The notes under the pieces were generated by a model, which was not told the DNA's origin, made no database searches, and saw only the letters and a program-made list of their open reading frames with translations. Below, piece after piece: positions 1 through 36,585 of a stretch of DNA of 64,000 nucleotides. Position 1 is the first letter of the stretch; each line of letters starts with the position of its first letter. Origin of the DNA: Candidatus Micrarchaeota archaeon. GTDB lineage: Archaea > Micrarchaeota > Micrarchaeia > Anstonellales > Bilamarchaeaceae. The stretch is taken from contig JAHJCT010000017.1 in assembly GCA_018812715.1 (NCBI GenBank), positions 204,019 through 268,018 on the forward strand, written 5' to 3'. Position numbers and translations under genes: made by a program.

Positions 1-3000
1 CTGTTGATTCTTCTGGTTCATTTTCTCCTACCCAGCCTTCTAGTCTGCCATACATGTAATTGGCTGCAATCAACCATCCGGCATTTCTTGCCTGATCTTC
101 ATTCCAACCATAAAGATCGACGAACATTGTTGTCATATTCTGATACATTTCATCTGCTTCCTGCTCTACTACTCTGTATTCCCGAAGAAGATCGACTTCA
201 TTATATGCAACTGTTACTCCATACCCATATGTTTCATGTTCACTTGTTGGTACCTCATGCCTCCATCGTCCTCCTATTGTTGCCGGATAACCACCAATAA
301 GTCTTGCTTCCCATGAATGTGATAATGGATCTACGCGCATGCGCCTCCACATAAGTTCTCCGCTTCCATGTGCCCAATGAGTGTCCGTTACTCTTGCGGG
401 ATTTTCAGGATCTAATTCAACTGTCTGGGCTCCGCGATAGAATGCTGCATAAACATCTCTTTGTCTTCCACTTTGTAACAAGTTTGTCACTGCCATGCCA
501 GTTGCTTCTTCTATGTGTACAGGATCCATTGTACTTAGGTTTCTTACAAGCTCTCCAAAGAGAAGTGCTGAAACTGTATCTCCGTCATCTCCAGTTGGTA
601 TGGTAAATCCAACAGCAGCACCATCAAATCCAGCTGCTGCCGAATCTTCTGTGAGCATTTCACTTCCAACAAATCTTAATGAAGCAAGTATATTCTGCGT
701 ATTTACTCCCCCATAAAGGTAATTCATCAACTCTGCTTCTGTATTACGTCCAAATGCAAGCTGGTAAACATCTCCCTCTCCTGTTATGAAAAACAATCTG
801 CTTCTTATTTCTCCTTGTTCTTCCTGCAGTCTGTCTCTTGTTTGGTTTTCAATATCTTCCATTGTTATTCCATAACCTTCCAAAAGTGCATCTAATTCTT
901 CTTGTGCTGCTTCTCTGTCTTCTTCAGTTTCTCCATTTCTTGAAGTATCCAGAAGCGTATTTATATGCGAATAATTAACATCTTCAGGATTTTCGACCCC
1001 CATATCTGTTATATCATCTGATGTTAATCTCCATGTGGGAGGACCAAGAAGTTCTGGCACATAGGTACCTGCAACAAAGAAAAGCATATCTGTTCCGGAT
1101 TCTCTTGCTATCCTTTGGTATGACTCAAGCAGTCCATCTGTCCTCACAGCAGTTGTTACTTCCTCTCCTTCTACCATGCCTGTTGAACTTTCATAAGTAA
1201 ATTCTTCTCGTGCCCTGTGGATTCCTACTCCTTCTCCTCTTCTAAACGTATCAACAGGAACAAGTTGAAGTAAAGGAAGCGGGACTGGTCCAGTTAATGG
1301 ACTTGGAACACCTACTGCTTCTCCAGTATAATCGACCCTATGGCCACCAGTAACACTTTCTTCAGCTTCGGTTCTTTCTCCAGTATATTGCAGCTCCCAT
1401 CTTTCTCCGCCAGTGATGCCCCGTAATTGTCCTTCACCAAGAGCAGCACCACGTTCTGTAACACTTCCTTCTTCTCCTTCTACTGAGTAGTACATTCCTC
1501 CTTCGGCATTGCCACTTAACCAATAATCCTGATAATTCACTGGCATAGCTCCAAAGAGCTGGGTAATTCTTCTTATGATTGTAGATGAACCAAGTGCACC
1601 AATTCTATATCGTGCTGGCACGCCCATTCTGAACATTCTGTCGGTTGGAGGGCGTACTTGATCATACATGTTTGAGAATAATCCCATTGCACCTGAATCA
1701 AGTACATTCAATCCTAACATTGGTCCATTTGGCATTGTCACGCGTGGAAGCAAACTGAGTGGCTGTCCACTTTGTCCATAAAGTGTTGGCAATTGTTCTT
1801 CATCATATTGCCACCAGCCTGGTCTTTGTCTGTATAAAAATGGGCTAATGAAACCCTCATCAGTCATTGGCTCCGGAACCATACGCATTTCATCTTCTAA
1901 TCTATGATGATCAAATGTACTTGTAATTTCTGGAAGTTGTTCTCCAATTCGTCTAAATACTCCAAGGAAGTATTCTCTGTTTATTGCATTACTATACATC
2001 AGATATCTTTGACCTTCAGCATATCTTTGTGTAAACATTTGCCTGAATGCCGTCATTCCTGCAATCAGCGTCCGCTCATCCTGAGCAACTTCTAATAATG
2101 CTGGAAGAACATACAATAAATATGGGCCAACGAGATAAGGATCCCTGTGTGATATCACTAAAAGCGTGTTCATTAATTCTGTGGCTGCAGCTCTTTGGAA
2201 GGCTGATCCACTTCCAGAAATGCCCTCAAGAGCTATGCCCATATATACTGCATCTAATATTGTAAGTTCATTGCGTAATTGTTGAACATTCTCATCTGTA
2301 AATTCTCCTGTTTCAGGACTAAAACCAGTTTCATTTCTTTGTAATAGGTATTCAGTTTCCATACCTTCATAGAACGTTCTTCCGGCCCTTATCAATTGTC
2401 TTCCAGCATCTGTTTGGAAAAATCTGGCCAGTTCTTCTGGTGTAACCTCATCTTGTAAATAGTCTGGTATATCGATGTGATACTGCTGTCCAATGCGTGT
2501 AAGATTTTCTCTGAAAAGTTCAAGATTGAAATATTGATTGAAAAGATAGTTATTCTCTCCAAATTCTTGTCTGTATATGTTTACAGCCTGTTCAAAATTG
2601 GTTCCAAATTCATCACTGGGATTAGAGAATAGCAATGCATTTCTTAATCTTGCATATACGCCGGGCAATGTTCTTGCTACGTGGTCATAATTCTCCATAA
2701 AGTTTGCCCTTGTTGCCCCGGGACCCTCTTCAAATGCACTATAAAGTCTTTCCAGAGTTTCTTCAGGAATATTTTCAAGCTCACTTACTCTAGCGCTTGG
2801 TCTTTCCAAAAATCTCAATGCATTCATATTTTCATGTACAAGTGTTACAAGGTCCTCTCCATAAGCAACATTAAGCATCTGTATTCTTTCTTGGAATCTT
2901 TCATATTCTCTTGTTCCTTCTGCTGGTTCATTCAACCACACCGCATATATTGCTCCGAGTGCATAAAACAACTCTTCTCCTTGATTAAGATATGTTCTTG

Positions 3001-6000
3001 TCAAGACATCAATTGTTCTTGAATATGCAGATGAATATGCTGCCATAAGTTCTCCTCTTACATCTTCTGGCAGTTCCCTTACTTGATCTAGACCAACTTC
3101 TGATTCCAATAATGGTGCAAGATGTTCTCGTTGTGCTTCAACTGCAACTACGAACTCTTCTCCAAACAATTCAACCATTCTTGCCCTGTTTTCTTCTCCT
3201 TGTGGATTTACTAACGCACGGTGGCATCTGATTAAAATACTTGCAAAAAGAACATTTTCTCCTTGTCTTAAATCTTCTCTGGTTGTACCTGGGCTTTCTA
3301 AGAATTGTAAATGTGGCGCATGTGCTTCAACAAGCAATACGAATTCCTCTCCATAATTTCTGACCAAGTCTCTTCTGTTGCTTTCTTCCAAACCAGCATA
3401 TGTTCTTGTAAGTGCATTAAAGAATCCTCTTTCATTCATGCTTCCAACAAACTCGTATAGTTCAGGATCTGCCCCATGCAAAACACTTGCAACAATCTCT
3501 TCTACGACTGCCTGTTTTTCAGGTGTAAGACTTCCAAACCAATCTAACAATTCTCTTAACTCCTGACTGTCAACATCTACACTTACAGTTCCAATCGCTC
3601 CGGTTACCCTTGTTAAATCCCCACCAGTTTGCGCTACATGTATCAAGGAGTATGCCATTTCAACTGATCTGCGAAGTTCTTGCGGATTTAACATTGAGTC
3701 AGACAATGTTCTTTGCTCTTGCTCCAATCTCTCAAGTGATTCTGCATCGGATGTAAGTCTGGATCTTCTTACTATTTCTCTGTTTTGTATCTCCCACCTT
3801 CTTATACGCTCCAATAAAAGTGCCCTTGCTGGTTCAAGAACAGAATATTGCAATTGTCTTCTAATATCCCCAATGTCATTTGCAATAGTGTGGCTGCGTG
3901 ATTCTATTGCCCTACTCCCCTCGCCTTCGATAACTACTGTAGGTGCAGTTACCACTTCTCTTGATACCACTGGCCTTACAAATAATGTTCCAAGTGCATC
4001 TCTTGCATCGACAAGAGCAACTCCTCCTCTGTTAATCGATTGTCTTGCCCTAGCTAATGCTGCCACCAATTGTACTGGGCCATATGAGTAAATTCTTCCT
4101 GCCCTCAATTCTCTTGTAGTTTCATCAGTCCTTTCTTGCAAAGCTGTTTCTATGCTCTGGACATCCCCAGAGAGCCATTCTAATTCAGCGCGATTTGTTT
4201 CAACAAAACCAACAAGTTCTTCCCCATATCGACTAACAAGCCTGCTTCTGTCTGTGCTATTTTCGTAAATATCATGCAGTGCAATTGCAAATGTCCCATA
4301 GGTATATCCAATGTTTTGCTGTATTTGTGTAACAACAGCGTCTTCACTTCTTGTGCGCATACCTTCTTCTATTTGTTCTATTGGAAGTACTAACCAATGA
4401 AGATTTTCTATATTTGTTTCAACAAAATTAACAAACTCTTCCCCATATCTGCTAACTAGTTCTGCCCTTCTTTCCCTCATTGTTTGTACTTCACTATATG
4501 CTTGCGTGAGGACAGTGCCAGCATTATTACCATATCTGCTTATCAGAGCAGTTGCGAGCGGATCTGCTTCTTCTCCTCTGCGGGTTCTTGTTCTTCTTTC
4601 AAGTTCTCCTTGGGCATCAGCAGGACTCATGTCAGCAACCCATGAAAGCTGATCAAAATTTTCTTCAACTGTTTGCATTTCTTGAACAACGTTATGCCCT
4701 ATTGTTCCTTCTTGCACTAATCTTGCATTTCCTCTTATTCTCTCCTCACGCAAGGCACTATAAACTTCTATTAATGCAGCTCCCCTATTTTCAACATCTA
4801 TTTCCAGAAGTTGAAGTGCTAGTGTATCCTCAAACCCAACTCTTCTACTCAGTTCTCTTTCGGCTTGCGTTCCATCTCTCATTAACCAGTCAATTCTGCT
4901 ATTTTGTATTATTACATTGACAAGCTCAGGTCCATAGTCAGTTCTTAATCTGTCAAGATCTGGAGTTTCTCTTGCCAGTTCAGTATAAATATCTCTTATT
5001 GCAATCGGGAGAATGTTTCTGCCAAATCCTCTTATGATCGCTGCTAATGTTTCATCATTATTTAGTTCAGCCCTATATAATGCTTGGAATTCATTCCAGA
5101 ATGTCTCATTCTCCTCTATTGGTCTACCAAGGAATCTTCCATTGAGTATTCCTCTAAATTCATTGCTTGCCTGCTGACTTCCAGTTGCAATAACCTCATT
5201 CATTAATCTGATTGCATGTCCTGCTTGTCCTCTTGCAACAATGTCAAGTAATGGTCCAATTACCTGCTCGTTCATCTGCGTTATTTCTGTATCGCTAACA
5301 TCTCTCCTTAGTACATCGCGCATAAAGCGTTGAACATGCGCATCTACATCCTGTCTTGTACCAGTTATGGCAAGATTATATACTTCTCGAACTAGTGTTG
5401 CAAATTCGCCGGGCTCTATCCCACTCATAATTCTGTTATAATTCTGTGTTATACTTGCTAAACCAGATGCTGTATCATTGTATATTCTTTCACGAAACTG
5501 TTCTGTAAATGCATCTGTAAATTCATCACTTGTATTTGCATTCCATATTCTTACAAATTCATCTCTACTTGTTTGATCGCCAGTAAGTATGAAATTCCTA
5601 AGATGATCTATTGCTATTCTTGCCTGTTCTGCTGGCATGCTTGTTATAACTAATTGTGTAAGATTCTCTCCATATCGTGCAGAAAGTTCTTCTACTGCCG
5701 CTCTTTGCAATTCTTTTCTTACAGCATTATCAATGGTATATCCTTCTTCCATCAATGCTCTTACTCTTCCGACATCAGTATCTGCCCTTACTGCTGTGCT
5801 GGTTTCTACTCTTTCCCTTAATTCATCTACTGCATCATTATTAGGAATACTTCTTGCCAATCCAGCTCTTATATTATACAACGTATCGATGAAGTCAACC
5901 ATAACAACAGGTTCTAATGGCCTTCTATCCTCTCTATAAGCCTCTAAAAGAGCACTCACTTGCGGATCTTCTCTAACCCGTTCCATTTCTTCAGAAAAGT

Positions 6001-6349
6001 GAGCCATAAAAGTAGCATTTTCATTTAATGGAGCTCCTCTGAAATCTTCATTATATATTCTCCAAAACAAGTCTCGTTGTGATTCGTTTCCAGTGATTAC
6101 ATAATTCCTATAAGCGTCAGCAGCTTCAGTGCCTCTTTGCTGAAGATACGTGACGTCCTCTGCTTCAATACGTCCCTGTTCTGCCATAGCTTCATTACCC
6201 CCGAAGTAGTTTATATTGGTAACGGTACCTACGCCAATGCTTGCAGAGAGAAAATACTTCATCCATCTCGAACGCTTTACCCGATCAAGAATGCCTTCAC
6301 GGCGAATCGTCTCTCGCTGTTCGCTATAACAAAGTTTTGCTCCTGCCAT
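1..6349 (-). CDS. Giant acidic repetitive protein, 5' part only (>2116 aa; C-terminus lies beyond the window start). Start ATG is the complement of 6347-6349.
   Basis: My own translation of the minus strand from 6349 to the window edge gives an uninterrupted frame. It is missing from the ORF track because no stop falls inside the window. The N-terminus MAGAKLCYSEQ... has a hydrophobic stretch around residues 28-50. An RYGEEFV..VE module recurs (for example near 4440, 4215, 3345, 3155 and 2855). Composition is R/E/D/A/T-rich, unlike the K-rich housekeeping genes. No family recognised. Confidence 0.8.
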   Translation of the reverse strand, partial: MAGAKLCYSEQRETIRREGILDRVKRSRWMKYFLSASIGVGTVTNINYFGGNEAMAEQGRIEAEDVTYLQQRGTEAADAYRNYVITGNESQRDLFWRIYNEDFRGAPLNENATFMAHFSEEMERVREDPQVSALLEAYREDRRPLEPVVMVDFIDTLYNIRAGLARSIPNNDAVDELRERVETSTAVRADTDVGRVRALMEEGYTIDNAVRKELQRAAVEELSARYGENLTQLVITSMPAEQARIAIDHLRNFILTGDQTSRDEFVRIWNANTSDEFTDAFTEQFRERIYNDTASGLASITQNYNRIMSGIEPGEFATLVREVYNLAITGTRQDVDAHVQRFMRDVLRRDVSDTEITQMNEQVIGPLLDIVARGQAGHAIRLMNEVIATGSQQASNEFRGILNGRFLGRPIEENETFWNEFQALYRAELNNDETLAAIIRGFGRNILPIAIRDIYTELARETPDLDRLRTDYGPELVNVIIQNSRIDWLMRDGTQAERELSRRVGFEDTLALQLLEIDVENRGAALIEVYSALREERIRGNARLVQEGTIGHNVVQEMQTVEENFDQLSWVADMSPADAQGELERRTRTRRGEEADPLATALISRYGNNAGTVLTQAYSEVQTMRERRAELVSRYGEEFVNFVETNIENLHWLVLPIEQIEEGMRTRSEDAVVTQIQQNIGYTYGTFAIALHDIYENSTDRSRLVSRYGEELVGFVETNRAELEWLSGDVQSIETALQERTDETTRELRAGRIYSYGPVQLVAALARARQSINRGGVALVDARDALGTLFVRPVVSREVVTAPTVVIEGEGSRAIESRSHTIANDIGDIRRQLQYSVLEPARALLLERIRRWEIQNREIVRRSRLTSDAESLERLEQEQRTLSDSMLNPQELRRSVEMAYSLIHVAQTGGDLTRVTGAIGTVSVDVDSQELRELLDWFGSLTPEKQAVVEEIVASVLHGADPELYEFVGSMNERGFFNALTRTYAGLEESNRRDLVRNYGEEFVLLVEAHAPHLQFLESPGTTREDLRQGENVLFASILIRCHRALVNPQGEENRARMVELFGEEFVVAVEAQREHLAPLLESEVGLDQVRELPEDVRGELMAAYSSAYSRTIDVLTRTYLNQGEELFYALGAIYAVWLNEPAEGTREYERFQERIQMLNVAYGEDLVTLVHENMNALRFLERPSARVSELENIPEETLERLYSAFEEGPGATRANFMENYDHVARTLPGVYARLRNALLFSNPSDEFGTNFEQAVNIYRQEFGENNYLFNQYFNLELFRENLTRIGQQYHIDIPDYLQDEVTPEELARFFQTDAGRQLIRAGRTFYEGMETEYLLQRNETGFSPETGEFTDENVQQLRNELTILDAVYMGIALEGISGSGSAFQRAAATELMNTLLVISHRDPYLVGPYLLYVLPALLEVAQDERTLIAGMTAFRQMFTQRYAEGQRYLMYSNAINREYFLGVFRRIGEQLPEITSTFDHHRLEDEMRMVPEPMTDEGFISPFLYRQRPGWWQYDEEQLPTLYGQSGQPLSLLPRVTMPNGPMLGLNVLDSGAMGLFSNMYDQVRPPTDRMFRMGVPARYRIGALGSSTIIRRITQLFGAMPVNYQDYWLSGNAEGGMYYSVEGEEGSVTERGAALGEGQLRGITGGERWELQYTGERTEAEESVTGGHRVDYTGEAVGVPSPLTGPVPLPLLQLVPVDTFRRGEGVGIHRAREEFTYESSTGMVEGEEVTTAVRTDGLLESYQRIARESGTDMLFFVAGTYVPELLGPPTWRLTSDDITDMGVENPEDVNYSHINTLLDTSRNGETEEDREAAQEELDALLEGYGITMEDIENQTRDRLQEEQGEIRSRLFFITGEGDVYQLAFGRNTEAELMNYLYGGVNTQNILASLRFVGSEMLTEDSAAAGFDGAAVGFTIPTGDDGDTVSALLFGELVRNLSTMDPVHIEEATGMAVTNLLQSGRQRDVYAAFYRGAQTVELDPENPARVTDTHWAHGSGELMWRRMRVDPLSHSWEARLIGGYPATIGGRWRHEVPTSEHETYGYGVTVAYNEVDLLREYRVVEQEADEMYQNMTTMFVDLYGWNEDQARNAGWLIAANYMYGRLEGWVGENEPEEST

Positions 6350-6421
6350 TGACTAACTACCTTTGTATTTATTGTGTTAAGAAAGCTTAAAAAGAGGTGT
6401 CACAATAAGGATTTTCAGGGA

Positions 6422-6688
6422 TTATCCTACCCCCAAAAATTTCTCATATTCTTTGTGGTCGCCAATAAAATAAAATTTCCGAGTTTTTATTCTTTCTTCT
6501 GAAACAAAAAGCACACGATATTGCCCGATCTCATCAACAAAGAATTCAAGACCATATTTTTCATGTCTAAAGCCATGCGTAGGGAATATTTTATATTTGT
6601 CTCTACGTTTCATAAATCTCTTTTGGATATCTGGCGGAAGCTTGTCAAAATAATTTTTCCAGGCTTCATCATATTCAAGGATGTACAT
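6422..6688 (-). CDS. RelE/ParE-family toxin (type II toxin-antitoxin)
   Basis: 88 aa. Pattern YILEY...KLPPDIQKRF...YRVLFVSEE...FYFIGDHKEY fits RelE/StbE. It lies immediately downstream of a small partner ORF, the classic antitoxin-then-toxin order. Confidence 0.7.
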   Translation of the reverse strand: MYILEYDEAWKNYFDKLPPDIQKRFMKRRDKYKIFPTHGFRHEKYGLEFFVDEIGQYRVLFVSEERIKTRKFYFIGDHKEYEKFLGVG

Positions 6689-6697
6689 TTATCTCAT

Positions 6698-6922
6698 CTA
6701 TAAAAGATGTTGATATTTACCTGTAAATTCTTCATCGCCAATTGTTTTCCTTTTTCCTTTTTTTGCTTCTTCATGAAGTTCTTTAAGTACTTTTATTGCC
6801 TTTTTATCTTCAAGTGGCCTTACTCCCAACCTTTCATGAACTTCCTCTTCTAAGTAATTGATAATATCTCTGCATTTAAGTAGTTCTTCATACTCTTGCT
6901 TAGATATTTTGATATACTCCAT
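6698..6922 (-). CDS. Putative antitoxin partner of the RelE-like toxin
   Basis: 74 aa, charged and helical. It sits directly upstream of the toxin on the same strand with a 9-nt spacer. The local region is AT-rich, unlike the flanking giant genes. Confidence 0.5.
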   Translation of the reverse strand: MEYIKISKQEYEELLKCRDIINYLEEEVHERLGVRPLEDKKAIKVLKELHEEAKKGKRKTIGDEEFTGKYQHLL

Positions 6923-6967
6923 TTTATTTCACAGTTATATTATGATTCAGCTCTTTAAAAATCATTA

Positions 6968-14500: not shown

Positions 14501-17097
14501 GCTTGTTCATATTCTCTTAAATTTCCACTAAAAGCCGCTTCTCTAAGTTCTTCAAGATCACTTCTTAAGCTATGCAATGGATAATCTCTGGCTATTGTTA
14601 AATCGCGCTCCCCATGACTTCTTTCATAACCTCTTATCTGTTCAGCAGTAACATATGCTGGAAATGTTCCATCCTCATTTCTTTCACCGAGTGGAATTTG
14701 TCCGGCTTCTACACCTTCTGCTATCGGCTCTCTTCCCCAGTAAATACCTGTTAATCTGTTATAATCAGCAATAAGCATTTCTGTTTGTACGATTCTTCTT
14801 GTTCCTCTATCAAACTGTTGTGCAGCTGCATAATGCTCTTCATCTGTTCCTGCATGCATTTCCATTTCTATTGCTTCAAGCATTATCCTTCTGCCTCTTC
14901 TGTATCCATATGGCACTTCTTCAGTTCCTTCTCGAATCATGCGTTCATGAGTAAATAGTTCATATCTCCAGCCTTCCTCTCTTCCTCCTTCAGCTGCACC
15001 ATAATAATCTCTTATATATTGCAGCAATAGATTTGCTCCCCGATAATCTCCAGCTTCGACTCTTTCTCTTACAATTCCTAATGCTTCATTTATTGTTGTT
15101 CTCCCAACTCCTCTTCTTTGTGCAAATGTCTCCAATCTGTTTGCTTCTGCTTCTATGTAAACTATCTGCGCTAAGTTGAAGCTTTCCATGAAGGCACCAT
15201 CATCACCTGGTTCGCCTTGTGCCATAGCCTGCAATTGTGTCTCCATTCCACTTAGGTGTATTGCATTTTCATCCGTAATTCTGGTGACTCTTCCATTGCT
15301 TACTACTCCAAGCCTTTGCACAGAATCAACATACATTGCAAGAAGTGTAAGTACTCTTGCTGCTTCTTGTGCATTCCCTTGTCTTGCAAGTTCTTCTGCA
15401 CGTTCAAGTGTTTGATTTACTATCCCTATCTGGAAAGTCATTCTTCTTGAACTCCAGTTTTCAATCAGTTCTCTGAATTGATCTGTTTCTCCTCTAACCT
15501 GGTGGTAAATCATTCCTATATTGAACTGCTCACTGGCATCTTCTCCTGCCATTTCACTTTGAAGTGCTTGTTCTATTGTTTCGCGTCCTTCCCAATCCCC
15601 CCAGCGATGCCCTTCATTTCTGTCATAATAAAATGAAATCATGTAAAGTAATCTTCTTGCTCCTTCGAAATCACCAAGCTTGAATCTTTCATCTGCAATG
15701 GCTGCTGCATTTCTGATAAGTTCTCTTCTCTCTTGCCCTCTTCTTCCTGTAATTGCTTGGAACCCTTCAATATCTACAAGCATGTGTGCCATGTCCATTT
15801 CAGTTGAATACTGTGCAAGCATTGATGAAGTAGGGCTTCTTCCTTCAATTATTATATTATATATTGTCTGATAACTCGGCAGATAATCTACTGCATGCCT
15901 ATCTAATTGTCTTGCAGACCGTTCAAGCAATCCTAAAGAAATGGCAAGTGCTGCAAGATTTCTATCTCCTCTTTGCAGTGCATCAAGTGCCTGTTGACCA
16001 TACCATTCCGGACTTTCTTCTGTTACTCTTCCTGTTCCACGTAAACTAGTAGCAATCATAGTCAGGTTTGCATCTCTTTCTTCTTCGCTTAATGGCATCT
16101 CTCTTCCAATTGTCATGAAATAGCTGGTTGTAATTCTTTCAAATTCCAACTGACCAATTATTTGTCCTTGTTCAAGTCTTCTGATTATTTCATCTAGTTC
16201 ATGCCTGAGATTTTCCATTTGCTGTCTCATCTGTTCATTTGTCTGTTGTTCTATTGCAAGTGCTATCTCATCTCTCCATTGGCTGAAGACTGTTGTGTTT
16301 ATCTCAGTCCATTGGTCCTTTATTGTTCCTATATTAGCTTCAAAAGACCAAAGCGATTGTCTATCTTCATGTTCCTGTTCACTAGTATACCCAATCCTTT
16401 GCCTCCCCTGGTTTCCTCTCTCCACTATAAAACCAAAGAGTGCATTTCTTTCCATTTCTACAGCTGAATTGTCGATATTGTAAATAGGAATATTCTCAAC
16501 GTACAATCTCCCTGCTTTTAGTACTGCCTCTGCTCTGCCGTGATTTGTTGTTGCAATATCTAATACAGAAGCTTCCAGGCTATCAAAAATAGTTTCAAGT
16601 GCATCTTCTGATTCCACGCCAGGAATCTGAATATTTTCAGGCATGCCCCCCGTTAGCATATGTAATTCTATATCAAATACATCTCCGACTGTTCTGAGCA
16701 TTGCCCTTGATCTTGTTATCATGTGGAATGATGCAGCAATGTTTCCTTCTCCACCAGTTGTTCTTGCATCATTTAATATCTGCTGAACTAAATCGAGTTC
16801 ATCCGTATACCTTTCTCCAAGTATTGGCAGTGCAGTTACTCTTAATCTCACTTGTTCCAATGTTTCTTCTGTTCTTTCTACTTCTGAATTAATGTATTCA
16901 ATAGTTGCATCATCAGGCCTGACAGTTAAGGTTCGCGCATGATCCTGGAGTGCACTAATCTCTCCAAGCACTTCATCCAATCCCTGTTCTAATTCTCTTC
17001 TTTGTTCATCCATTGCTTCTATTCTTGTTGGAATGATTGCAATTGGTAATCGTGTAATCTCCTCCTCTTCAGGTCTTTCTATTGTTGTTCCTCCCAT
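8533..17097 (-). CDS. Giant membrane protein, 2854 aa. TPR-like N-terminal region, central block of 4-5 TM helices, repeat modules, Trp-rich module and a conserved C-terminal domain.
   Basis: Single uninterrupted ORF. TPR-like segments (GDFEGARRLLYMISFYY, GDYRGANLLLQYIRDYY). Hydrophobic helices around 12960-13390 (FWTTVGLTAVGVVACLVPGG, WLMFGGIIATMGIGGLAGVL, IFLTAMAAFPWAHMA). IEAQRGELAPLL matches the VEAQREHLAPLL repeat of the upstream giant. Trp-rich module 10480-10700. C-terminal YRLLTSTIDRDMQLREGYGLTVSGEGEGLSVEV is shared with the 1463-aa protein. Confidence 0.85.
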   Translation of the reverse strand: MGGTTIERPEEEEITRLPIAIIPTRIEAMDEQRRELEQGLDEVLGEISALQDHARTLTVRPDDATIEYINSEVERTEETLEQVRLRVTALPILGERYTDELDLVQQILNDARTTGGEGNIAASFHMITRSRAMLRTVGDVFDIELHMLTGGMPENIQIPGVESEDALETIFDSLEASVLDIATTNHGRAEAVLKAGRLYVENIPIYNIDNSAVEMERNALFGFIVERGNQGRQRIGYTSEQEHEDRQSLWSFEANIGTIKDQWTEINTTVFSQWRDEIALAIEQQTNEQMRQQMENLRHELDEIIRRLEQGQIIGQLEFERITTSYFMTIGREMPLSEEERDANLTMIATSLRGTGRVTEESPEWYGQQALDALQRGDRNLAALAISLGLLERSARQLDRHAVDYLPSYQTIYNIIIEGRSPTSSMLAQYSTEMDMAHMLVDIEGFQAITGRRGQERRELIRNAAAIADERFKLGDFEGARRLLYMISFYYDRNEGHRWGDWEGRETIEQALQSEMAGEDASEQFNIGMIYHQVRGETDQFRELIENWSSRRMTFQIGIVNQTLERAEELARQGNAQEAARVLTLLAMYVDSVQRLGVVSNGRVTRITDENAIHLSGMETQLQAMAQGEPGDDGAFMESFNLAQIVYIEAEANRLETFAQRRGVGRTTINEALGIVRERVEAGDYRGANLLLQYIRDYYGAAEGGREEGWRYELFTHERMIREGTEEVPYGYRRGRRIMLEAIEMEMHAGTDEEHYAAAQQFDRGTRRIVQTEMLIADYNRLTGIYWGREPIAEGVEAGQIPLGERNEDGTFPAYVTAEQIRGYERSHGERDLTIARDYPLHSLRSDLEELREAAFSGNLREYEQASETYWNRLSLIATRVHRRSTVVDAEVILRQGNDALTEAFRAYVINMCGGGTTGERAWQTAWDYGHDVGAFTTTSNGLSLMADYIEQHPETFGAVSDLEMGRLRQVIYLSTEVDALLTQMDGIEYTTDDLPIYGEGLRGGTVMSYLLELVQGESRAAMAYSQIGQQIEVNDEYLRMIRIGGGDRFSLAEDNLRDCNTDLQRAQNLILEGRFQEAEEAYEAAIDHRITAMASYEGRSAMNLTATGIENFLEGAERLGEAIFFPEDFAEFMRSEPDRSYWDAYREMQTDSMHYILFGRGGSGSQERMQLDLNGARIVEASIFAIPADSGSQMFAEYAVDQGNVYALVGMGRFDDANAIIDRMQERVADHQFWTTVGLTAVGVVACLVPGGQLFGGSLFATMAFDQIVTEYRVQGEASWTSWLMFGGIIATMGIGGLAGVLRTEAQFAQGTAYATRMTQVVRALNYTNIGIGVGFSGYMGYHAVDAFSEGNMREGIFLTAMAAFPWAHMAGSRGWQAMRARPVRGTTEARTETELVAEEIRAPEPREVPIEIEPNEIPSVREAQRLRTPEEMFEFMRELRSEDPTVRDGAQARLRTLPEEVQGRIMQFMETGSIGNTSFMHVPEALVTGEMTPLARGNMTSVIDMIFRGPEPPTPGPRGGRPVTEVESTGTLQPGRLDWLLEGLLTPEGTTARENVVHRAAAQQTLENIRAENPEVAEIIDGLIRNPSVRHYFETGEATPFSQRALENARSQIEAMFEPEAVAMAVNDYNYYIEDVVASEMARRPHLVEGEGPMMIRQMPEVRAMAEEGGARPPGVQQGGIGPVDTTVGGGQGGGGGPVRPIPEVRWGRFERMYRFGRERWQNWRSDRVERNARAELPEAEEVLSTTGEGVRNTLDMVLDPELAQLEISRARTRATELEVRVEELREGGARPEEIRVAEQEAQTARTEAVELENLLNSSPQRIADIMKSLYDTAQTARGETSGYWNLLRRIYSRPNVRAQLETLAETDPVLRDILNRTGRTIESGARNAGISPEDYMAVQAREGFSANDVEVMIRAIEAQRGELAPLLRTQELLGIEYTPLERASLLPRLEGSDIIPPQMLVRELAGVQNSVEGRIREIPIADEPVTNVIRRTLLERSSQGGNVNDVLTEILRSPEVERAVRERYGREAAEIYRDAVQNNRTVDEILNVLEQGRAVEGAEPQFVPREMRTPLEGFVRNISQDPAFAQEFSAINALRPRINQVLDQASTAADVFARDTRPLRDDAINIGWRILRFLNNWEPLTNWGARRFVNSIRNAVPGGRIRAGLRNSPYLIPQAIAWYVIGNYAWDNVLLPWYNSLNSAGSVEEGRRLCERDFGNLCAGASDEDLEWLATEEGRRFFFHMPNALPRGRDRRPGNVEDLNQLLQRTDILIEPRRLGEIVADGREMGGRLDDINDLLSDMRRGDAEDRREAELAAILEPWGLTVDDVQGILSQERKEEVDITDLFDLRIPQWRERGLVIDFRDAVADAFCVDTGLISEGEAESGRYTREGGQRVDFLTSNTDVFAYLWEAVQGGHIPSVYLDNIMNDLTSEGRITELRQQVTSERDIYQVLEAHLRSQNLYIEVIEEDGTVTGIRQNSFLGLLDVRASLDPGFRDTYEQLLNQYRENNEALLAFNAFNIEDIRYGEENRVIGGDAIYGNPQELAALILESETPGEAVEAARQRGFVGSAVLGYMEPRLFDPENAHLVTFIAERSDEERLGFVRWLLDHRDNIRGHVLEIIEDASQHSTVPGPGRYTEIYEYLDRRATVYRSNGWWDGATPAEEQAREERERSRGTVTREETVEPVGEEFEAQYVRRPGFEVMTPRREDQIDVEEVHAPPATLSPEAQRFYANEESTLTPLLDGTIDRMIEARNDDGTLTEDAQAMVNAYGPEINSEDAETRERARDVVRADIKAEMYRLLTSTIDRDMQLREGYGLTVSGEGEGLSVEVDRRTARNGLRNHIMQYVSRRGER

Positions 17098-17106
17098 TTT
17101 TTCACC

Positions 17107-17430
17107 TCAAGTATATTCCTTACACATAAGTACAAAATCCTGCAGCCTCTCAAGTCTCGCCTTTTCATTATCTTTTCCTTTCACTGCTTTTTTCTGCCAT
17201 TCAACCAGCTCATCATGGAATTTTCTTATTTTTTCTATCTGTGGCTCCATACTCCTGCTTTTTACCTTTGAAGCCTCCCATTTTGCAAGGAATTTTTCTA
17301 TTACAGTAATAGTATGATTTACCCTGTTTATTGTATTTTTTTCAACAGAAGCAGCATCAGTCTTAACAGGTATTTTCTTCTTGGAGATTTTTTTCTTTTT
17401 TGAAGATTTTTTCTTAGCCATCAGAAGCAC
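17107..17430 (-). CDS. Small lysine-rich protein (107 aa) immediately upstream of the 2854-aa gene
   Basis: Its ORF ends 9 nt before the giant's start codon. K-rich and AT-rich like the housekeeping genes, not like the giants. The N-terminus MAKKKSSKKKKISKKK suggests nucleic-acid or acidic-partner binding. No family recognised. Confidence 0.45.
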   Translation of the reverse strand: MLLMAKKKSSKKKKISKKKIPVKTDAASVEKNTINRVNHTITVIEKFLAKWEASKVKSRSMEPQIEKIRKFHDELVEWQKKAVKGKDNEKARLERLQDFVLMCKEYT

Positions 17431-17511
17431 CTAAAAATTTATGGCGCTCCAACTTTATAAATTTGTACTATTTCACATAGAATTAGAAAAATATTATAAA
17501 AAATAAAAGAA

Positions 17512-20500
17512 TTATTCATTTTCTCTGCCTACAAAGCTCAGAGTGTGTCTCTCTATGCCTCTTCTGGCTCTTCCCATATCTGTTATTTGAACAGCGAACT
17601 CTTCGCCTTCACCACTTACAGTGAGTCCATAGTCAGTACGGTGCTGTACGTCCCTTCGTATATCACTTGTAAGAAGTCTATACCACTCTGCTCTTATTGC
17701 CATTTCAGTTTGTTCTCTGTTCCCTTCAAATGCACTTCTTAGCAATTGACCGTCTTCTCCTTCATCAGTGAAGAGCCTTTCCAGGGTTCCGTCCAACATG
17801 CTGTTAAAGTCATTTTCAATAGTATAGAACTGTTGAGCCTCAGCGTTCAATTCTGTACCACTTCTCTCAGTTCCAGTTCCTCTAAATCTTTCTACTTCAT
17901 TGATGTATCCTGTATCAACAGCCCACTGTACACGAACACCTTGTGGATCTGAGAATGGATTATAGTCAGATACATTTCCACCATCTGCTTTGTGCCTTTG
18001 CAGTTCTTCAACAAATTCTTCAAGACGGTATCTGTTGAGTCTGTATCGTGCACCTCTGGTATCGACAAAGCTTGTCAGGAGCTCTCTTATATCCTGGTTT
18101 GTTGGCGCAAGAAGAGTGTATGCCATGCTATCTGAAATATCAAATTCAGAAAGTTCTCTTCTTAACTCCCTTCTTGCATATTGTTCAGAGGTATCTTCAA
18201 CCCATCCATTTGTTCTTGCAGTTGCCATTGCTTCATTGAATGTTTCTTCTAACATTACATCAGTTACAGGAACACGTCTTGTTTGCAATGTTTGTCCTTC
18301 CCCAGCTCTTGCTTGTGTTTTTTCTTCCCAAAGAGTAACAAATGCTTCTCTATTTTCTGGTTTGAGGTACTCGGTATGCTCTCCCCTTTCAGCCACTAAT
18401 GGAAGCATAAGTCTTCCTACTCTATCTCTTCCTTGTGCAAAGACAAAATCCACTAATCCAAGATCTGCTATATTATAATTATCCATTACTCTTTCTTGTT
18501 GCTCAGATACGAGGAATCCTCTTTCTACCCATTGCCTTGTATGTTCATTCATATAGTCATAGTCAACTGTTGCCCTCGTTCCCTCTTGTGCCATTAAATA
18601 ATCAACAAATTCATTTGTCATATTCCTGTTGAGTTTAAGGCCATCGGTTATCACAGTATATTCTACATCGATTATACAACAGAACTGATTTCCTGATTCC
18701 CATTCATCTTCAATTGCTAGTGGTTCCCAGTTTTCTACATCATCCATACTTTCAATACCAAGTTCTCTGCATGAATTAGGTATTACTAATCCCGGTGTTG
18801 CTGGAGGCCTTTCAACTGCTTCTCCTGTTCCCTCGGCTACTTCATTAGTTCCTTCAGCTACCTCGCCAGTTCCTTCTGCATTTTCTTCTCTAGGCGGAGG
18901 TTGTGCTCTAGAGGTAGAACCTGCACTTGTTTCCTGAGAACAATTAGCTATGTCATCATCATCCAGTTCGTTTACATCTCTAACATGTTTCAATGTTCTT
19001 CTCTCTTGGAAGAATGTAAGAACACCTTCATTATCATGTTCAACTTGATTATCCCTTAGCCAGTCTAATCTTTCCTCACCTGTAACTCCATATGCAGTTG
19101 TGTAATAACTATCCTCTCTTTCTGCAAGTCGTTCTGGAATGTCGTAACTATCATTTATCATTCTCTTATTTGAGAGCTCACCTTGCATCGGAGACCACCA
19201 TTCCCAAGGTGCTCGGTCGAAGTGGTTTCCAAAATGATTAAAGCTCCAACGCCATGGCATCGCATTCCATGAGAATGGATTGTACCAATGACCTGTAGTT
19301 GATGTACCAATGCGATAGGTCCAAGGTTTGTACCATGCTCCGTTTGGTGTTGTTGTCATCCATTCATTTGGTGATGTGAACCATGCAACACCAAAAGATC
19401 CTATCAAGTATGCTTTGAGTGCTCCTTTCCAAAGTCCCCTCAACCATCTCGGGTAATGTTGGTATGTGTGAGCCTTTCCTGTAATTGGATTTCTACCAAC
19501 AACTTGCTTATTCCAATTTCGTTTCTTAAGATCATCAACTGTTTCTCCAAAGCCCCAACTTGAAAGTCTTCTAAGACGCCCACCTCTAAAATTACCTTGT
19601 GACTTTCCTATCCATGCTTCGCTTGTAAATAATCTCCAGAACCATTTATCTTTGAACTTTTGCCATTTTCCTACAGTTACTTTTGGAGACGGATCCCAGC
19701 TTTCTTTTGTAGCTTCCCAGATCGTTCTTGCTATAACAAATTGACCTTGAGGTATTTCACCTAAGTTTTCAGCAGTTCTTTTATGAAGCATTTCAACTGA
19801 TTTTTCAGCTGCTTTTCCTAATGGCTTGGAATACTTATTTTCTATTTTTACCAGCATCTCTTCTAATGAAGCACGAGGATACTTTCTAGTTTCTATTGCC
19901 TTTACAACTGTCAGCATTCTTTTTCTTACTTCATCAGGCAATTCTGCTCCTTCTACTTTTGTTCTTAATGCAGTTGCTTTTGTATCAAATGCTTCAAGCT
20001 TATATCTGAAAAGTTCTTCGCTTTCACCTTTACCTTTTCGTTCTTGTATCACTGCATCATATTCTGCTTTAGTAATACTTCTTGCTCTAAGCAGTTCATC
20101 CAATTGTTCTGCAGTTTTTGTTCTCAATCCTTGTTCTGTTGAAGGAATACCAAACAATTGCTGGCAGTCGTCCATACGATCAAGAACTTTCTTTGTATCT
20201 TTCATCAATTCACTGATAACTGGATTGCCTAGCCACTCTCCTGCTCTATTTGGAAGTTCATGAATTAATTCTGTACTCACTTCTCTGCAGTCAAGCATAT
20301 GCTTTTTGAAGTTTTCAGAGTATGTCCGTACTACATTTTCAAATCTGCCATTTTCAGTTCCTTGTATTCCACCTAATTCTGCTGAAAGTGTATCAAATAT
20401 TTCTTTTGCTTGAGTATACTCGTCCTCTATTCTCGCCCCCCTAGCAGACAAACTCAGTCCACGGGTATTAAATTCACTAATTCGCTGTCTTGCAATTACT

Positions 20501-21903
20501 AATTCTTGTTCTGCAGTATCCTTCTCTTCAGTAGCTTTTCTTTCTGCATCCTCAATCTGTTTTTGTGTTGCTTTTGCCTTTCCTTCTGCAACAAGCTGTT
20601 TTAGTTTTACAACTTTATCATACTGTTCTGTTTTTTCTACAACAGTTGCTTCGGCTCGTTCAACCAGTCTCTCTGCATCTGCCCTTTCGTTTCTAAATTC
20701 TGAAATTTCGTCATCTATTGCATCTACTCTTGCTGCACTTTCTTCCATGACGCTTTCAGCAGCAGCTCTCCGTACCATCATGTCTTCAACAGTTTGTCGT
20801 TGGCTTGGTCTGCATGGTCCAAATCCTTCAACATCAACAAAATGACCTGTTCCTGGAATACCTAGCCCTTCAACTGTCTCATTTGTAGGTGTTAAAAGAA
20901 TTGCACGAACGAATTGCCTGAAATTATCTGCAGCCATATCTATTGCTATAGATGTTCTTGATTCAAGATAAGCATCCACATAACTTCCATCAAGTACACG
21001 ACGATTAGTTTCTTGAGTATTCTCCGAGTCCATGCTTCTGGTCCCAGAAAGTTGCTTTAAAACACTACCTATGAATTCTCCTTCTTTTCCTGGGCTGAGT
21101 CTTTGTGCGACATTTTCAAGAAATCTAAAGAATGCGTCTGGAGGTAACGCTACTCCTTCTGGCCATGTTTCATGAGTCCACAATGATTCATATAATTTAT
21201 CTCCCCTTTCATCTCTTACACAATTTCCTTGTTCATCTTCTTGCTCAATCGGATTCCCCTTATCATCTAATTTAAATCTAGATCCGATCATTTGCGAATA
21301 AATAATATCAATTCTATCAGCATCAAAATCTTCGACTCTTCCTTCACTTAACTCTTGAGCAAGTCTTTGCCTTACGGCATACATTCTTTCTGCATACGCA
21401 GTATCAAGTTCTTCAAGCGGTGTCGGCACCGTCGGTTTCTTCAACCCATCAATAAATTCTTTTCTGCATACAATCTCTCTTATAAGCATATCAAAGCCAG
21501 AACTTGTCCTGCCCTGTCCTCTTCGTATTGCATCTACCAATTCTAATGTAAATTTAGTCAAATACTCTGCATTTGCTGTATCAGCACCGCTTTGCGGGGT
21601 TCCTCCGGCACCATGCCGTGTATCTTTATCTTGCCCTCGTTCTCCTCTCAGTTCTTTTAATCTTTCTTCTTTAGCAAATTCAATTCTTGCGTCTTTATCT
21701 GCTCTTTTTCGAGCTTTATGATCTTTTCTTAATTCAGGACTTAATGCAGCCCCCAGAACGGGCACTCTCTCTGCCATATATTTGTAACTCTTTGCAGAGC
21801 GACTTTCTCCACCTCTTGCCCAATCAAATACTCTTTGCCTTATACCAGCTTTCTCAGCCTGTTTATCTCTTCCCTGAGCCCTATCTATAACACTACCCGT
21901 CAT
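17512..21903 (-). CDS. Giant protein, 1463 aa, paralogous to the 2854-aa protein. Coiled-coil N-terminal half, Trp-rich module and a conserved C-terminal domain.
   Basis: Uninterrupted ORF. Trp-rich module 19190-19680 (WFWRLFTSEAW...GGRLRRLSSWGFG...YLIGSFGVAWF...PWEWW) aligns with the 2854-aa segment WRILRFLNNWEPLTNWGARRF...GGRIRAGLRNS...YVIGNYAWDN. The last ~100 aa (AEAQQFY...WYRLLTSDIRRDVQHRTDYGLTVSGEGEEFAVQI) align with the 2854-aa C-terminus. TATA-like TTTACTATTTAAT and GGAGG lie upstream of the ATG. Confidence 0.85.
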   Translation of the reverse strand: MTGSVIDRAQGRDKQAEKAGIRQRVFDWARGGESRSAKSYKYMAERVPVLGAALSPELRKDHKARKRADKDARIEFAKEERLKELRGERGQDKDTRHGAGGTPQSGADTANAEYLTKFTLELVDAIRRGQGRTSSGFDMLIREIVCRKEFIDGLKKPTVPTPLEELDTAYAERMYAVRQRLAQELSEGRVEDFDADRIDIIYSQMIGSRFKLDDKGNPIEQEDEQGNCVRDERGDKLYESLWTHETWPEGVALPPDAFFRFLENVAQRLSPGKEGEFIGSVLKQLSGTRSMDSENTQETNRRVLDGSYVDAYLESRTSIAIDMAADNFRQFVRAILLTPTNETVEGLGIPGTGHFVDVEGFGPCRPSQRQTVEDMMVRRAAAESVMEESAARVDAIDDEISEFRNERADAERLVERAEATVVEKTEQYDKVVKLKQLVAEGKAKATQKQIEDAERKATEEKDTAEQELVIARQRISEFNTRGLSLSARGARIEDEYTQAKEIFDTLSAELGGIQGTENGRFENVVRTYSENFKKHMLDCREVSTELIHELPNRAGEWLGNPVISELMKDTKKVLDRMDDCQQLFGIPSTEQGLRTKTAEQLDELLRARSITKAEYDAVIQERKGKGESEELFRYKLEAFDTKATALRTKVEGAELPDEVRKRMLTVVKAIETRKYPRASLEEMLVKIENKYSKPLGKAAEKSVEMLHKRTAENLGEIPQGQFVIARTIWEATKESWDPSPKVTVGKWQKFKDKWFWRLFTSEAWIGKSQGNFRGGRLRRLSSWGFGETVDDLKKRNWNKQVVGRNPITGKAHTYQHYPRWLRGLWKGALKAYLIGSFGVAWFTSPNEWMTTTPNGAWYKPWTYRIGTSTTGHWYNPFSWNAMPWRWSFNHFGNHFDRAPWEWWSPMQGELSNKRMINDSYDIPERLAEREDSYYTTAYGVTGEERLDWLRDNQVEHDNEGVLTFFQERRTLKHVRDVNELDDDDIANCSQETSAGSTSRAQPPPREENAEGTGEVAEGTNEVAEGTGEAVERPPATPGLVIPNSCRELGIESMDDVENWEPLAIEDEWESGNQFCCIIDVEYTVITDGLKLNRNMTNEFVDYLMAQEGTRATVDYDYMNEHTRQWVERGFLVSEQQERVMDNYNIADLGLVDFVFAQGRDRVGRLMLPLVAERGEHTEYLKPENREAFVTLWEEKTQARAGEGQTLQTRRVPVTDVMLEETFNEAMATARTNGWVEDTSEQYARRELRRELSEFDISDSMAYTLLAPTNQDIRELLTSFVDTRGARYRLNRYRLEEFVEELQRHKADGGNVSDYNPFSDPQGVRVQWAVDTGYINEVERFRGTGTERSGTELNAEAQQFYTIENDFNSMLDGTLERLFTDEGEDGQLLRSAFEGNREQTEMAIRAEWYRLLTSDIRRDVQHRTDYGLTVSGEGEEFAVQITDMGRARRGIERHTLSFVGRENE

Positions 21904-21990
21904 TTTTTCTAAGCCTCCAGTTATTACATTAAATAGTAAATAATGTGGCTAAAACTCTTTAAAAAAGTATGTTTCAGTGGTTTTACATGG

Positions 21991-22428
21991 TTATAATCTT
22001 TCCTTAACTAGCTCAACGAATTTCTTTGCATTTTCTAATGCCTTTTCTGCTTCTTCTTTTCCTACACTATCTGATTCTCCATATACGACGTCATGCCGTC
22101 TTACTCGATACCGATTAAATGTATTTGCTAATCCGATCGACTCTGCTGGAAAGACTGCTGCACAGAATTGAACTACCGCGAGATGATGGGCCTCTGATAC
22201 TGGCATATATCCTTTATACGTCATCAAAGCCCTACCAGCAGATAGCATAGCATTATACGCTATTGCCAGTGCCCAATCATAATTCTTATTTTTCAAATTA
22301 TCTGATGCTACCCTCAGGTCTCTTTCTGCCATCAATAGTATCTCTTTAGCTTTTTCTCTATCGCTTTCCACTTTTCTTACTAAATCCTTCTTTAACAATT
22401 CTGCTAAATTCATCCTTCTCACCAACAA
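21991..22428 (-). CDS. HEPN-domain protein (toxin-like partner of the upstream nucleotidyltransferase)
   Basis: Rx4HxxxY motif (RYRVRRHDVVYG) near the C-terminus of a small helical protein. It overlaps the 3' end of the upstream minimal-nucleotidyltransferase gene. Confidence 0.65.
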   Translation of the reverse strand: MLVRRMNLAELLKKDLVRKVESDREKAKEILLMAERDLRVASDNLKNKNYDWALAIAYNAMLSAGRALMTYKGYMPVSEAHHLAVVQFCAAVFPAESIGLANTFNRYRVRRHDVVYGESDSVGKEEAEKALENAKKFVELVKERL

Positions 22429-36235: not shown

Positions 36236-36548
36236 TGGAGTGGGCTTTCTGCTTGAAAATAAATTTTCAAGATCAGCCAACTTTGCATAAGCAAAGTGGG
36301 CTTTCCAGTTAGCCTTGACATGAATATAAGGAGCCAATATCCGCTACTCAATCCTGGATCTTATAAGCACGGAACGATACATTTAGGGCTGCTTCTTCCG
36401 ATCTGACCCGGTTCATATATAATCCCGCCACATAAGGCAGGACGTCAACGCTTAAGATACTGGGCATACATCCACGGCAAAACGCCCCAGACCTTCGAGT
36501 CGCCTAAGGGGATTTGCGATGCCGGGACCCCTAGCCCCGCTCTAGCCC
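36236..36548 (-). ncRNA. Signal recognition particle RNA (7S / SRP RNA)
   Basis: The minus strand reads GGUCAGAUCGGAAGAAGCAGCC, the helix-8 GGAA-tetraloop and GCAGCC motif of SRP RNA. Alu-domain-like 5' loops (GGGGUCCCGGCAUCGC...GACUCGAAGGUC). Helix-6-like hairpin CCUGCC-UUAUGU-GGCGGG. The 5' GAGCGGGGCU can pair with the 3' AGCCCACUCC. The 3' boundary is approximate. Confidence 0.75.
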
Positions 36549-36585
36549 ATTATTATAACGAAATTCTCCTTTTTAAAACGCATAC
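36549..36585 (-). promoter_or_regulatory. TATA-box promoter of the SRP RNA
   Basis: On the transcribed strand CGTTTTAAAAAGGAGAATTTCGTTATAATAAT precedes GGGCUAGAGC. The TTTTAAAAA element sits about 25-32 nt upstream of the inferred 5' end. Confidence 0.5.

Follow-up and report, generated by a model that had tools for sequence, protein, structure and literature searches.

A conserved Micrarchaeota operon encoding giant, lysine-poor proteins of no known family, with a possible role in the cell envelope

A conserved operon of giant proteins

The left third of a 64,000-nucleotide stretch of contig JAHJCT010000017.1, from a Candidatus Micrarchaeota archaeon (the whole stretch, positions 1-64000, is the window), is occupied by giant genes that all lie on the minus strand. 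We call the genes A, S, B, C and D. By sequence they form a putative operon of a new kind, A-S-B-C-D, whose products belong to no known family and among which B, C and D are almost devoid of lysine. Judging from its conservation in relatives, the operon is old, vertically inherited and specific to Micrarchaeota, and is not a genomic island. We tentatively propose that it builds a very large envelope-spanning assembly that tethers the outer layer and/or contacts the host, a function we infer from sequence, structure models and the literature.

Searches with A, S, B, C and D, including full-length D, gave nothing above noise in Pfam, NCBIfam, PHROGs and PADLOC (no PADLOC model at E<=0.01), and no match was obtained in a PDB sequence search with a single B or with profiles of B, D and the D C-terminus. 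An earlier note on this DNA had described the giants as uncharacterised families, and these results bear it out. Twelve distant members of the D family likewise showed no Pfam domain. The operon is filed as new because it matches no known family and because D does not qualify as a member of the families nearest to it in architecture. Members of its families are rare. A word-indexed search of 5.8 billion proteins returned three other B proteins and 11 other D proteins, and an exhaustive profile search with the C-terminal 978 residues of D found 66 proteins among 1.84 billion cluster representatives. All named family members are assigned to 'Candidatus Micrarchaeota/Micrarchaeia', leaving out the most distant members, P0064, P0066 and P0071, for which no taxonomy was obtained.

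Read in the direction of transcription, gene A (17512..21903; 1463 amino acids, aa) is followed by S (17107..17430; 107 aa, or 104 aa counted from ATG), B (8533..17097; 2854 aa), C (6968..8533; 521 aa) and D (1..6349). The last is open from an ATG at 6349 to the left window edge, so that the window holds the N-terminal 2116 of its 2824 residues. ORF calling thus recovers the minus-strand open reading frames (ORFs) of 1463, 2854 and 521 aa and of at least 2116 codons reported in the earlier note, as well as the single base common to the stop of B and the start of C (TAATG, 8535-8531), an overlap that suggests translational coupling of C to B. Gene S and the near-absence of lysine had both been overlooked there. 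Full-length D (2824 aa) is P0005 (KKB44_03040), an identical protein in a 'Candidatus Micrarchaeota archaeon' metagenome-assembled genome (MAG), and KKB44_03060 of that MAG is identical to B. Giant ORFs in MAGs can be chimeric, and for that reason alone we considered that these might be chance frames, pseudogenes or mis-assemblies; nothing in the data speaks for such a reading, and we regard it as having practically no chance of being right. The same contig was assembled twice independently, as the NCBI MAG and as a Logan contig from run SRR2540949, a biofilm from deep groundwater at the Aspo laboratory (PMC5364579), and full-length orthologues of 28-57% identity come from at least 10 other samples. 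Because the two independent assemblies give identical proteins and the orthologues are full-length, the giant ORFs are not frameshift or assembly artefacts, the outcome that the earlier note had named as fatal to its own view; purifying selection, seen in conserved motifs and in the maintained avoidance of lysine, argues the same way.

To the right, beyond a HEPN/nucleotidyltransferase pair, the neighbours are archaeal housekeeping genes, namely ftsY (signal recognition particle (SRP) receptor; 23007..24365, minus strand; Pfam SRP54 5.5e-69), prefoldin, eIF6, L31e, L39e, S19e and fibrillarin. The same arrangement, again in the company of ftsY, prefoldin and ribosomal genes, recurs in relatives of very different G+C (GC) content. 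It reads prefoldin-ftsY-A-S-B-C-D in L002/L005 (66% GC), prefoldin-ftsY-A-S-B-C in L009 (58% GC) and eIF6-ftsY-A-S-B in L010 (58% GC); L003 has A-S-B-C-D with ftsY beyond the contig end, and L004 has S-B-C-D. Protein identities across these loci are 21-64% (local BLASTP segments). Where the earlier note had suggested looking for synteny breaks, the order ftsY-A-S-B is instead kept in four lineages. The gene immediately upstream of the operon in these four, which span 37-66% GC, is ftsY (L002 3709-5250; L009 2506-3969; L010 3134-4807), an adjacency that may hint at co-regulation with co-translational membrane targeting.

The earlier note had seen in this block a horizontally acquired accessory or mobile set of paralogous giant host-interaction genes, compositionally distinct from its surroundings and carrying toxin-antitoxin pairs. 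We now consider this very improbable. The block is indeed richer in GC by 3 points (0.403 against 0.371 in the rest of the window), but only the first two codon positions contribute to the excess (GC1.552 against.497; GC2.425 against.348), and amino-acid composition explains it fully. At the third position GC is.245 in the block and.276 in the rest, and relative synonymous codon usage (RSCU) correlates at 0.967 between block and rest, compared with 0.970 between two halves of the rest. Recoding the giants with the codon preferences of the rest predicts 42.6% GC; 40.7% is observed. The distinctness therefore holds for overall GC, while GC3 and synonymous codon usage match the host and are not foreign. 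Because the gene order is kept in relatives with 58-66% GC, and because codon usage is host-like, we read A-S-B-C-D as an old vertically inherited operon.

The toxin-antitoxin genes themselves are partly as described. The HEPN gene (21991-22428; Pfam 2.6e-14) and the nucleotidyltransferase gene (22358-22966; Polbeta/NTP_transf_2, 1.7e-10), on the minus strand between ftsY and gene A, are an adjacent HEPN and minimal nucleotidyltransferase and match PDC-M05, a candidate defence system in PADLOC, in each of its two components (A 1.1e-44, B 2.1e-16), which confirms the pair at the block's edge. As listed, the two genes overlap by ~70 bases. The pair inside the block stands less firmly: the RelE-like toxin gene (6422..6688, minus strand; 88 aa), between C and D, has a weak match to PHROG 1213 'RelE-like toxin' (E 3.6e-5) and none in Pfam, and the putative antitoxin ORF directly upstream of it (6698..6922, minus strand; 74 aa) matches no family. 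The HEPN/nucleotidyltransferase pair is absent at the same site in L002, L009 and L010, and the interval from C to D is free of toxin-antitoxin genes in L002, L003 and L004. Because they are lacking in the loci of relatives, the pairs are lineage-specific local insertions into an old operon and not a sign of its mobile origin. No integrase, transposase or tRNA was found at the block borders, and the proteins are not paralogous, save for one domain of 110 aa.

Near-absence of lysine

Lysine occurs six times in the 2854 residues of B, once in the 521 of C and five times in the 2116 residues of D that lie in the window, or 12 times in 5,491 residues. Neighbouring genes encode 8-16% lysine (~10%), and S 22%. 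Against a 10% background, finding 12 or fewer lysines has a probability of 3e-227; if the 1.2% lysine of the window's own surface proteins is taken instead, it is 3e-16. Arginine is kept at ~10% in the giants, and AGA and AGG, each a single transition from a lysine codon, account for 80% of its codons. Because AGA/AGG and the equally A-rich GAA are abundant, the exclusion acts on the amino acid, and avoidance of A-rich codons at the nucleotide level can be ruled out.

The same bias is found in relatives. In the 66%-GC relative the orthologues of B, C and D contain 0.2% lysine, compared with 8.4% in ftsY, and 10 of the 11 close D orthologues contain 0.53% or less. Among 47 long D-family proteins the distribution is bimodal, with 17 below 1% lysine (arginine 10.4%) and 29 at 3% or above (lysine 7.2%, arginine 5.4%). 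The sum of lysine and arginine is alike in both groups (r = -0.87), and sites that are lysine in a lysine-replete D orthologue are most often arginine in the lysine-free ones. A loss of lysine that follows GC content was also ruled out: the window has 40% GC, and because the lysine-replete lineages have 52-58%, base composition is not the cause.

The few remaining lysines are unevenly placed. Three of the five in the window part of D are in its N-terminal signal-like segment, and 64 of the 71 in A precede residue 831, the start of its most hydrophobic segment, so that the content falls from 7.7% to 1.1%. Two proteins elsewhere in the window, right-handed beta-helix/NosD-type proteins encoded at 30797-33862 (plus strand) and 56459-60028 (minus strand), carry a signal peptide and, at the C-terminus, a membrane helix and a K/R tail. 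The ectodomains of these surface proteins contain ~1% lysine and ~1.7% arginine, compared with ~10% lysine in cytoplasmic proteins, and their lysines are in the cytoplasmic tail, which suggests that lysine is biased by location across the proteome. Location alone is nevertheless an insufficient account, as B is lysine-free throughout and has no export signal.

Long, maintained lysine-free stretches in which arginine is retained are a feature of lysine-poor toxin chains. They also define lysine deserts (PMC10665810, PMC10169902), which have been described as an escape from lysine-directed degradation (PMC10665810). The giants differ from lysine deserts in scale, being whole proteins of 521-2854 residues (5,491 in all), and in belonging to an archaeon with a lysine-rich proteome. 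They differ also in that the products of a single operon (B, C and D) are all affected, in some lineages of the family only.

Architecture of the giants

The earlier note had called the three largest proteins paralogous and had assigned to them a common C-terminal domain, a Trp-rich domain and RYGEEFV-type repeats. We find that A and B are homologous only in their C-terminal ~110 aa (BLASTP 40% identity, E 2e-17; hhalign probability 97%, E 1.6e-11 over 108 columns, with no second region) and that D is unrelated to either, with an hhalign probability of 0.2% against B and no homology to A detected by sequence comparison. The common C-terminal domain, with its YGLTVSGEGE motif, therefore holds for A (residues ~1352-1463, 17515..17850) and B (residues ~2724-2854, 8536..8928) but not for D. 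It can be aligned across seven A/B orthologues. The profile search proposed for it gave zero matches in the 5.8-billion-protein word index, which is probably a limit of that index for a short divergent domain. The RYGEEFV-type repeats occur in D alone, with zero copies in A, B and C. No homologous Trp-rich domain was detected by hhalign; in both A and B, a weakly hydrophobic segment rich in Trp lies ~620-680 residues ahead of the C-terminus. Separately, a ~45-aa motif (..LL....E.......L.A.LE..G.T..D..) is common to B residues 2295-2340 and D residues 1796-1844 (BLASTP E 3e-4; window 10078-10215 and 818-964). It is absent in the D orthologues P0008-P0012, and similar short inserts stand elsewhere in P0013 and P0015.

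High charge and helical structure characterise A, B and C, which are in part coiled coil. The N-terminal part of A is rich in coiled coil and contains lysines; the Trp-rich weakly hydrophobic segment follows, and then a lysine-poor C-terminal part. The peak hydropathy of A falls within the Trp-rich stretch at residues 824-842 (LWKGALKAYLIGSFGVAWF; 19378..19434), and the segment of L002_A aligned to it is likewise the most hydrophobic of that protein. A single membrane span here is possible, and it stays at that level because the hydrophobicity is marginal (Kyte-Doolittle 0.96). Orthologues of A were found in L002, L003, L009 and L010 at 21-42% identity (local BLASTP segments).

B consists of a helical N-terminal region of ~1230 aa, a central membrane block and a C-terminal part of ~1470 aa that ends in the domain held in common with A. 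The transmembrane block that the earlier note had placed in this protein is confirmed by hydropathy at residues ~1233-1373 (12979..13401), where four helices are clearly hydrophobic and one further segment is amphipathic; an Arg-rich stretch comes after the last helix. The block is conserved in four orthologues. No signal peptide was found in B. If there are four spans and the positive-inside rule applies, both large halves would be cytoplasmic. B orthologues are 28-41% identical. C has no recognisable feature and no family match; its orthologues in L002, L003, L004 and L009 measure 553-833 aa and are 30-43% identical (local BLASTP segments).

S is small and very basic (22% lysine, pI ~10) and lies directly upstream of B in every lineage seen, distant ones included. 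Its orthologues are 46-64% identical in L002, L003, L004 and L010, and in L009 S was read in frame and not scored. It is also 33-38% identical to proteins encoded beside distant B-like giants in L006 and L012. At those loci (L006 9314-21031; L012 9399-21109) an S-like gene of 131-141 aa precedes a giant ORF, 3,758 aa or longer and with 1.2-1.4% lysine, whose N-terminus resembles B (24-25% identity), and a PP2C phosphatase gene lies upstream. In L007 (6351-10643) a B-like ORF of at least 1,431 aa and 2.5% lysine was seen alone. L006, L007 and L012 come from deep-mine and other MAGs.

The N-terminus of D (residues 1-56, 6182..6349) resembles a signal peptide. By inspection, a K/R-rich start leads into the hydrophobic stretch YFLSASIGVGTV and then into NYFGGNEAMA|EQ, similar to an AxA cleavage site. 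In the form ..NFGG..AMA|QP this motif is kept across orthologues, with ..VMAEP-type relatives in distant members, and the database gene calls for several D-family members begin at the M of the AMA motif. Then comes a long region containing copies of a helical module of ~70 aa (..DIYxEL..PD..RL...YGxExVxxV.....LxWL..P). A pattern search found eight copies in full-length D and six in the window, these between residues ~440 and 1230 (2660..5032); the other two, at residues 2321 and 2407, are modelled as helical with a predicted local distance difference test (pLDDT) score of 80-90. By its distribution the module acts like a shuffling module. Extra copies were noted at differing positions in the orthologues P0007, P0009 and P0015, even inside the beta-rich region. 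That region, a beta-rich core at residues ~1847-2290 (in the window to residue 2116), is strongly conserved and is the most widely shared part of the family.

The C-terminal domain of D (residues 2466-2824) is encoded outside the window. A first AlphaFold2 model of residues 1847-2824, built from nine sequences, had a mean pLDDT of 51.6 and was confident for the helical modules only, so that a Foldseek search with it was meaningless; it was superseded by a model of the final 359 residues, built on an alignment of 26 sequences (mean pLDDT 85.0, predicted template modelling score 0.63). In this model a small alpha/beta subdomain precedes 9-10 antiparallel strands, each 11-20 residues long, in a meander with barrel curvature, and the C-terminal ~220 residues are confidently predicted to form a long antiparallel sheet of the kind seen in bacterial outer-membrane barrels. 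Its best 60 fold matches in Foldseek are all membrane barrels. The Foldseek list also holds pore-forming sheets of the MACPF and leukocidin type. At the extreme C-terminus, 26 of the 31 D-family members with a complete end terminate in exactly W, F or Y. Hydrophobic residues occupy position -3 in 88%, compared with 12% at -2 and 8% at -4, two positions that are mostly polar. This pattern matches the bacterial beta-signal. Within the window no further ORF has an outer-membrane-like C-terminus.

Several other features of the window were noted. An SRP RNA at 36296-36550 (minus strand) is the window's only Rfam match (RF01854, 65.2 bits, full length), and in clan competition the bacterial large-SRP model won. 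Proteins of recognised type include a DNA methylase (49597-50844, minus strand), a HerA-like ATPase with HAS barrel and DUF87 (52148-53647, plus strand), and a signal-peptide-bearing protein that has the Lon-protease C-terminal domain and a membrane helix at its C-terminus (60789-62477, minus strand). ARAGORN found zero tRNA genes in the 64-kb window.

A possible envelope assembly and its alternatives

An envelope location, raised in the earlier note, is plausible from the membrane block of B and from the signal-peptide-like N-terminus and barrel-like C-terminus of D. In a passage of Klingl 2014 (PMC4243693) that cites Comolli 2009, ARMAN/Micrarchaeota are described as having inner and outer membranes around a periplasm, and the cultivated ARM-1 too is reported to have inner and outer membranes with a periplasm (Sakai 2022, PMC8784108). 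In ARM-1, crescent-shaped densities run from the outer layer to the cytoplasmic membrane, and the envelope contains a 21-nm barrel-shaped docking complex of uncharacterised composition (PMC11329633).

The assembly we favour, though we would put its chances slightly short of even, could work as follows. D would be exported by Sec, its barrel anchoring it in the outermost envelope layer, which the majority of reports on the phylum take to be an outer membrane, and its helical-module part of ~2,400 residues filling the space underneath. B would reside in the cytoplasmic membrane, and A and B might dock onto one same partner through their common C-terminal domain. C would be made in step with B, and S may be a small cytoplasmic partner of B, either a chaperone or a regulator. 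The whole would tie the outer layer to the cytoplasmic membrane and/or serve as a platform for host contact. Lysine could be excluded as a liability where the giants work, for example through lysine-directed modification, proteolysis or cross-linking, with arginine keeping the charge. A bolder version, which we think doubtful, holds that Micrarchaeota possess genuine bacterial-type membrane-embedded beta-barrels, the first in Archaea, at the C-termini of secreted giants of ~2,800 residues; that these, with B in the inner membrane and A, C and S as partners, form the crescent spans of cryo-tomography and/or the 21-nm barrel-shaped platform at which nanotubes of the host are received; and that the exclusion of lysine is an adaptation to lysine-directed attack or chemistry at the symbiont-host interface.

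A number of observations weigh against an envelope assembly of this kind. The Foldseek check suggested by the earlier note was run on the D C-terminus and did return barrel-type targets, but with template modelling (TM) scores of at most 0.37. Period-2 hydrophobicity of the D strands across the family is 0.59, not higher than the 0.56 +/- 0.07 of shuffled sequences; some strands alternate clearly, and several are hydrophobic on both faces. Full-length D matches no Pfam outer-membrane or autotransporter model. The barrel-like domain lies outside the window. No Omp85/BamA insertase is known from Archaea. The operon is not complete everywhere, A being missing upstream of S in L004 and minus-strand genes following C in place of D in L009 (18130-24217). 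Lysine is not scarce in about 60% of the wider D family, and no homologue of the giants has a known function. In the most recent cryo-tomography, that of the cultivated ARM-1, the outer layer is read as an S-layer (Johnson 2024, PMC11329633). Finally, because B is lysine-free without an export signal, including in parts that are necessarily cytoplasmic in any topology, avoidance of lysine outside the cytoplasm is not the whole story.

This last point would be expected if the giants were mainly cytoplasmic, forming an intracellular or membrane-associated scaffold, cytoskeleton-like or a membrane-shaping lattice, in which the D C-terminus is a soluble beta-barrel and lysine is avoided to evade the cell's own ubiquitin-like SAMP tagging, or acylation, in very long-lived proteins. 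Lysine deserts are known in proteins evading lysine-directed degradation (PMC10665810); the absence of a signal peptide in B, the charged, helical and partly coiled-coil character of A, B and C, and the non-significant amphipathicity of the D strands, some of them hydrophobic on both faces, are all in keeping with such a scaffold. It is nonetheless improbable in our view, as D has a conserved signal-peptide-like N-terminus, which carries its N-terminal lysines, as well as a conserved C-terminal aromatic signature, and as its best 60 fold matches are all membrane barrels. Moreover, lysine content switches in A exactly at the hydrophobic segment, and the bona fide surface proteins of the window have lysine-poor ectodomains.

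The two ends of D would also suit a secreted apparatus directed at the host. D would then be autotransporter-like or pore-forming, its C-terminal sheet inserting into the membrane of the host as a feeding pore or adhesin; the other giants would be delivered or exposed to the host, and lysine would be avoided against lysine-directed tagging or proteolysis by the host. That B carries a membrane block of its own and lacks an export signal, and that the operon occupies a fixed site amid housekeeping genes and evolves like a core locus, make us consider this unlikely, even though MACPF and leukocidin-type sheets are among the Foldseek matches and all cultivated DPANN are contact-dependent symbionts (PMC11329633). 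Lysine-free and lysine-replete lineages also occur side by side in the family, as expected under a host-dependent pressure, and lysine deserts have been linked with escape from lysine-directed degradation (PMC10665810).

In architecture, the nearest parallels to D are autotransporters and barrel-anchored tethers, yet it does not qualify for membership in those families. It is like the type Va autotransporters (EspP, Hbp, NalP, BrkA, AIDA-I, EstA) in the order of its parts: a signal-peptide-like N-terminus, a very long 'passenger' and a barrel-like, aromatic-ended C-terminus. In contrast to them, it shows no sequence relationship and no match to Pfam Autotransporter (PF03797), it has ~9-10 modelled strands where they have 12, and its passenger is made of helical modules with no beta-helix match. 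It is, moreover, encoded by an archaeon without known BAM machinery, in an operon with four more proteins of no known family. With the TonB-dependent receptors (BtuB, FptA) and the Omp85/TpsB proteins (TamA, FhaC, CdiB, BamA, Sam50) D has in common the terminal aromatic and alternating hydrophobics, but the sequence identity is only 4-13%, the barrel match is partial, at the TM scores given above, and no plug, POTRA or TonB-box was detected in D by sequence. Bacterial trans-envelope tethers include OmpA/Lpp, and TamB/AsmA-like proteins that dock on a barrel. The concept is the same, a giant periplasm-spanning protein combined with an outer-layer barrel and an inner-membrane anchor, but no AsmA, TamB or OmpA-like sequence match was found in the giants.

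Archaeal systems offer partial parallels as well. The outer-membrane pore of Ignicoccus, Ihomp1, is a small helical oligomer and not a beta-barrel. The giants can be compared with Ihomp1 and with archaeal S-layer or surface proteins in that an outer membrane has been reported for their lineage (PMC4243693, PMC8784108) and that they are likely located in the envelope. Unlike surface and S-layer proteins, A-D have no C-terminal membrane helix and no S-layer match in Pfam or NCBIfam, and the layout of the window's beta-helix surface proteins, a signal peptide with a C-terminal helix, is absent in them. The SPEARE proteins of Nanohaloarchaeum antarcticus are defined by protease, adhesion and restriction-endonuclease domains. 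They resemble the giants in their multi-thousand-residue size, in belonging to a contact-dependent DPANN symbiont and in their suspected role in host interaction, but no such domains were detected in the giants, and database searches showed no sequence similarity.

A literature search found no paper that ties Micrarchaeota to beta-barrel outer-membrane proteins or to these genes, with incomplete coverage that leaves novelty unproven. The locus also carries a lesson for annotation, in that a GC shift arising purely from amino-acid composition can mimic a genomic island. The exclusion of lysine over ~5,500 residues in a proteome of ~10% lysine is among the most extreme lysine deserts described, and the lysine-replete sister lineages provide a natural contrast for finding its cause. 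For the organism, the operon supplies the first concrete, named candidates for building the disputed outer envelope of Micrarchaeota or their host-contact machinery. It bears on the make-up of the outer layer of ARMAN/Micrarchaeota, for which no protein components are known, on the question of a true outer membrane, and on the ways in which such an envelope could be built without the bacterial machinery. A bacterial-type barrel with a beta-signal-like end in an archaeon would, if true, be unexpected, and would inform the origins of second membranes, whether through convergence or ancient transfer.

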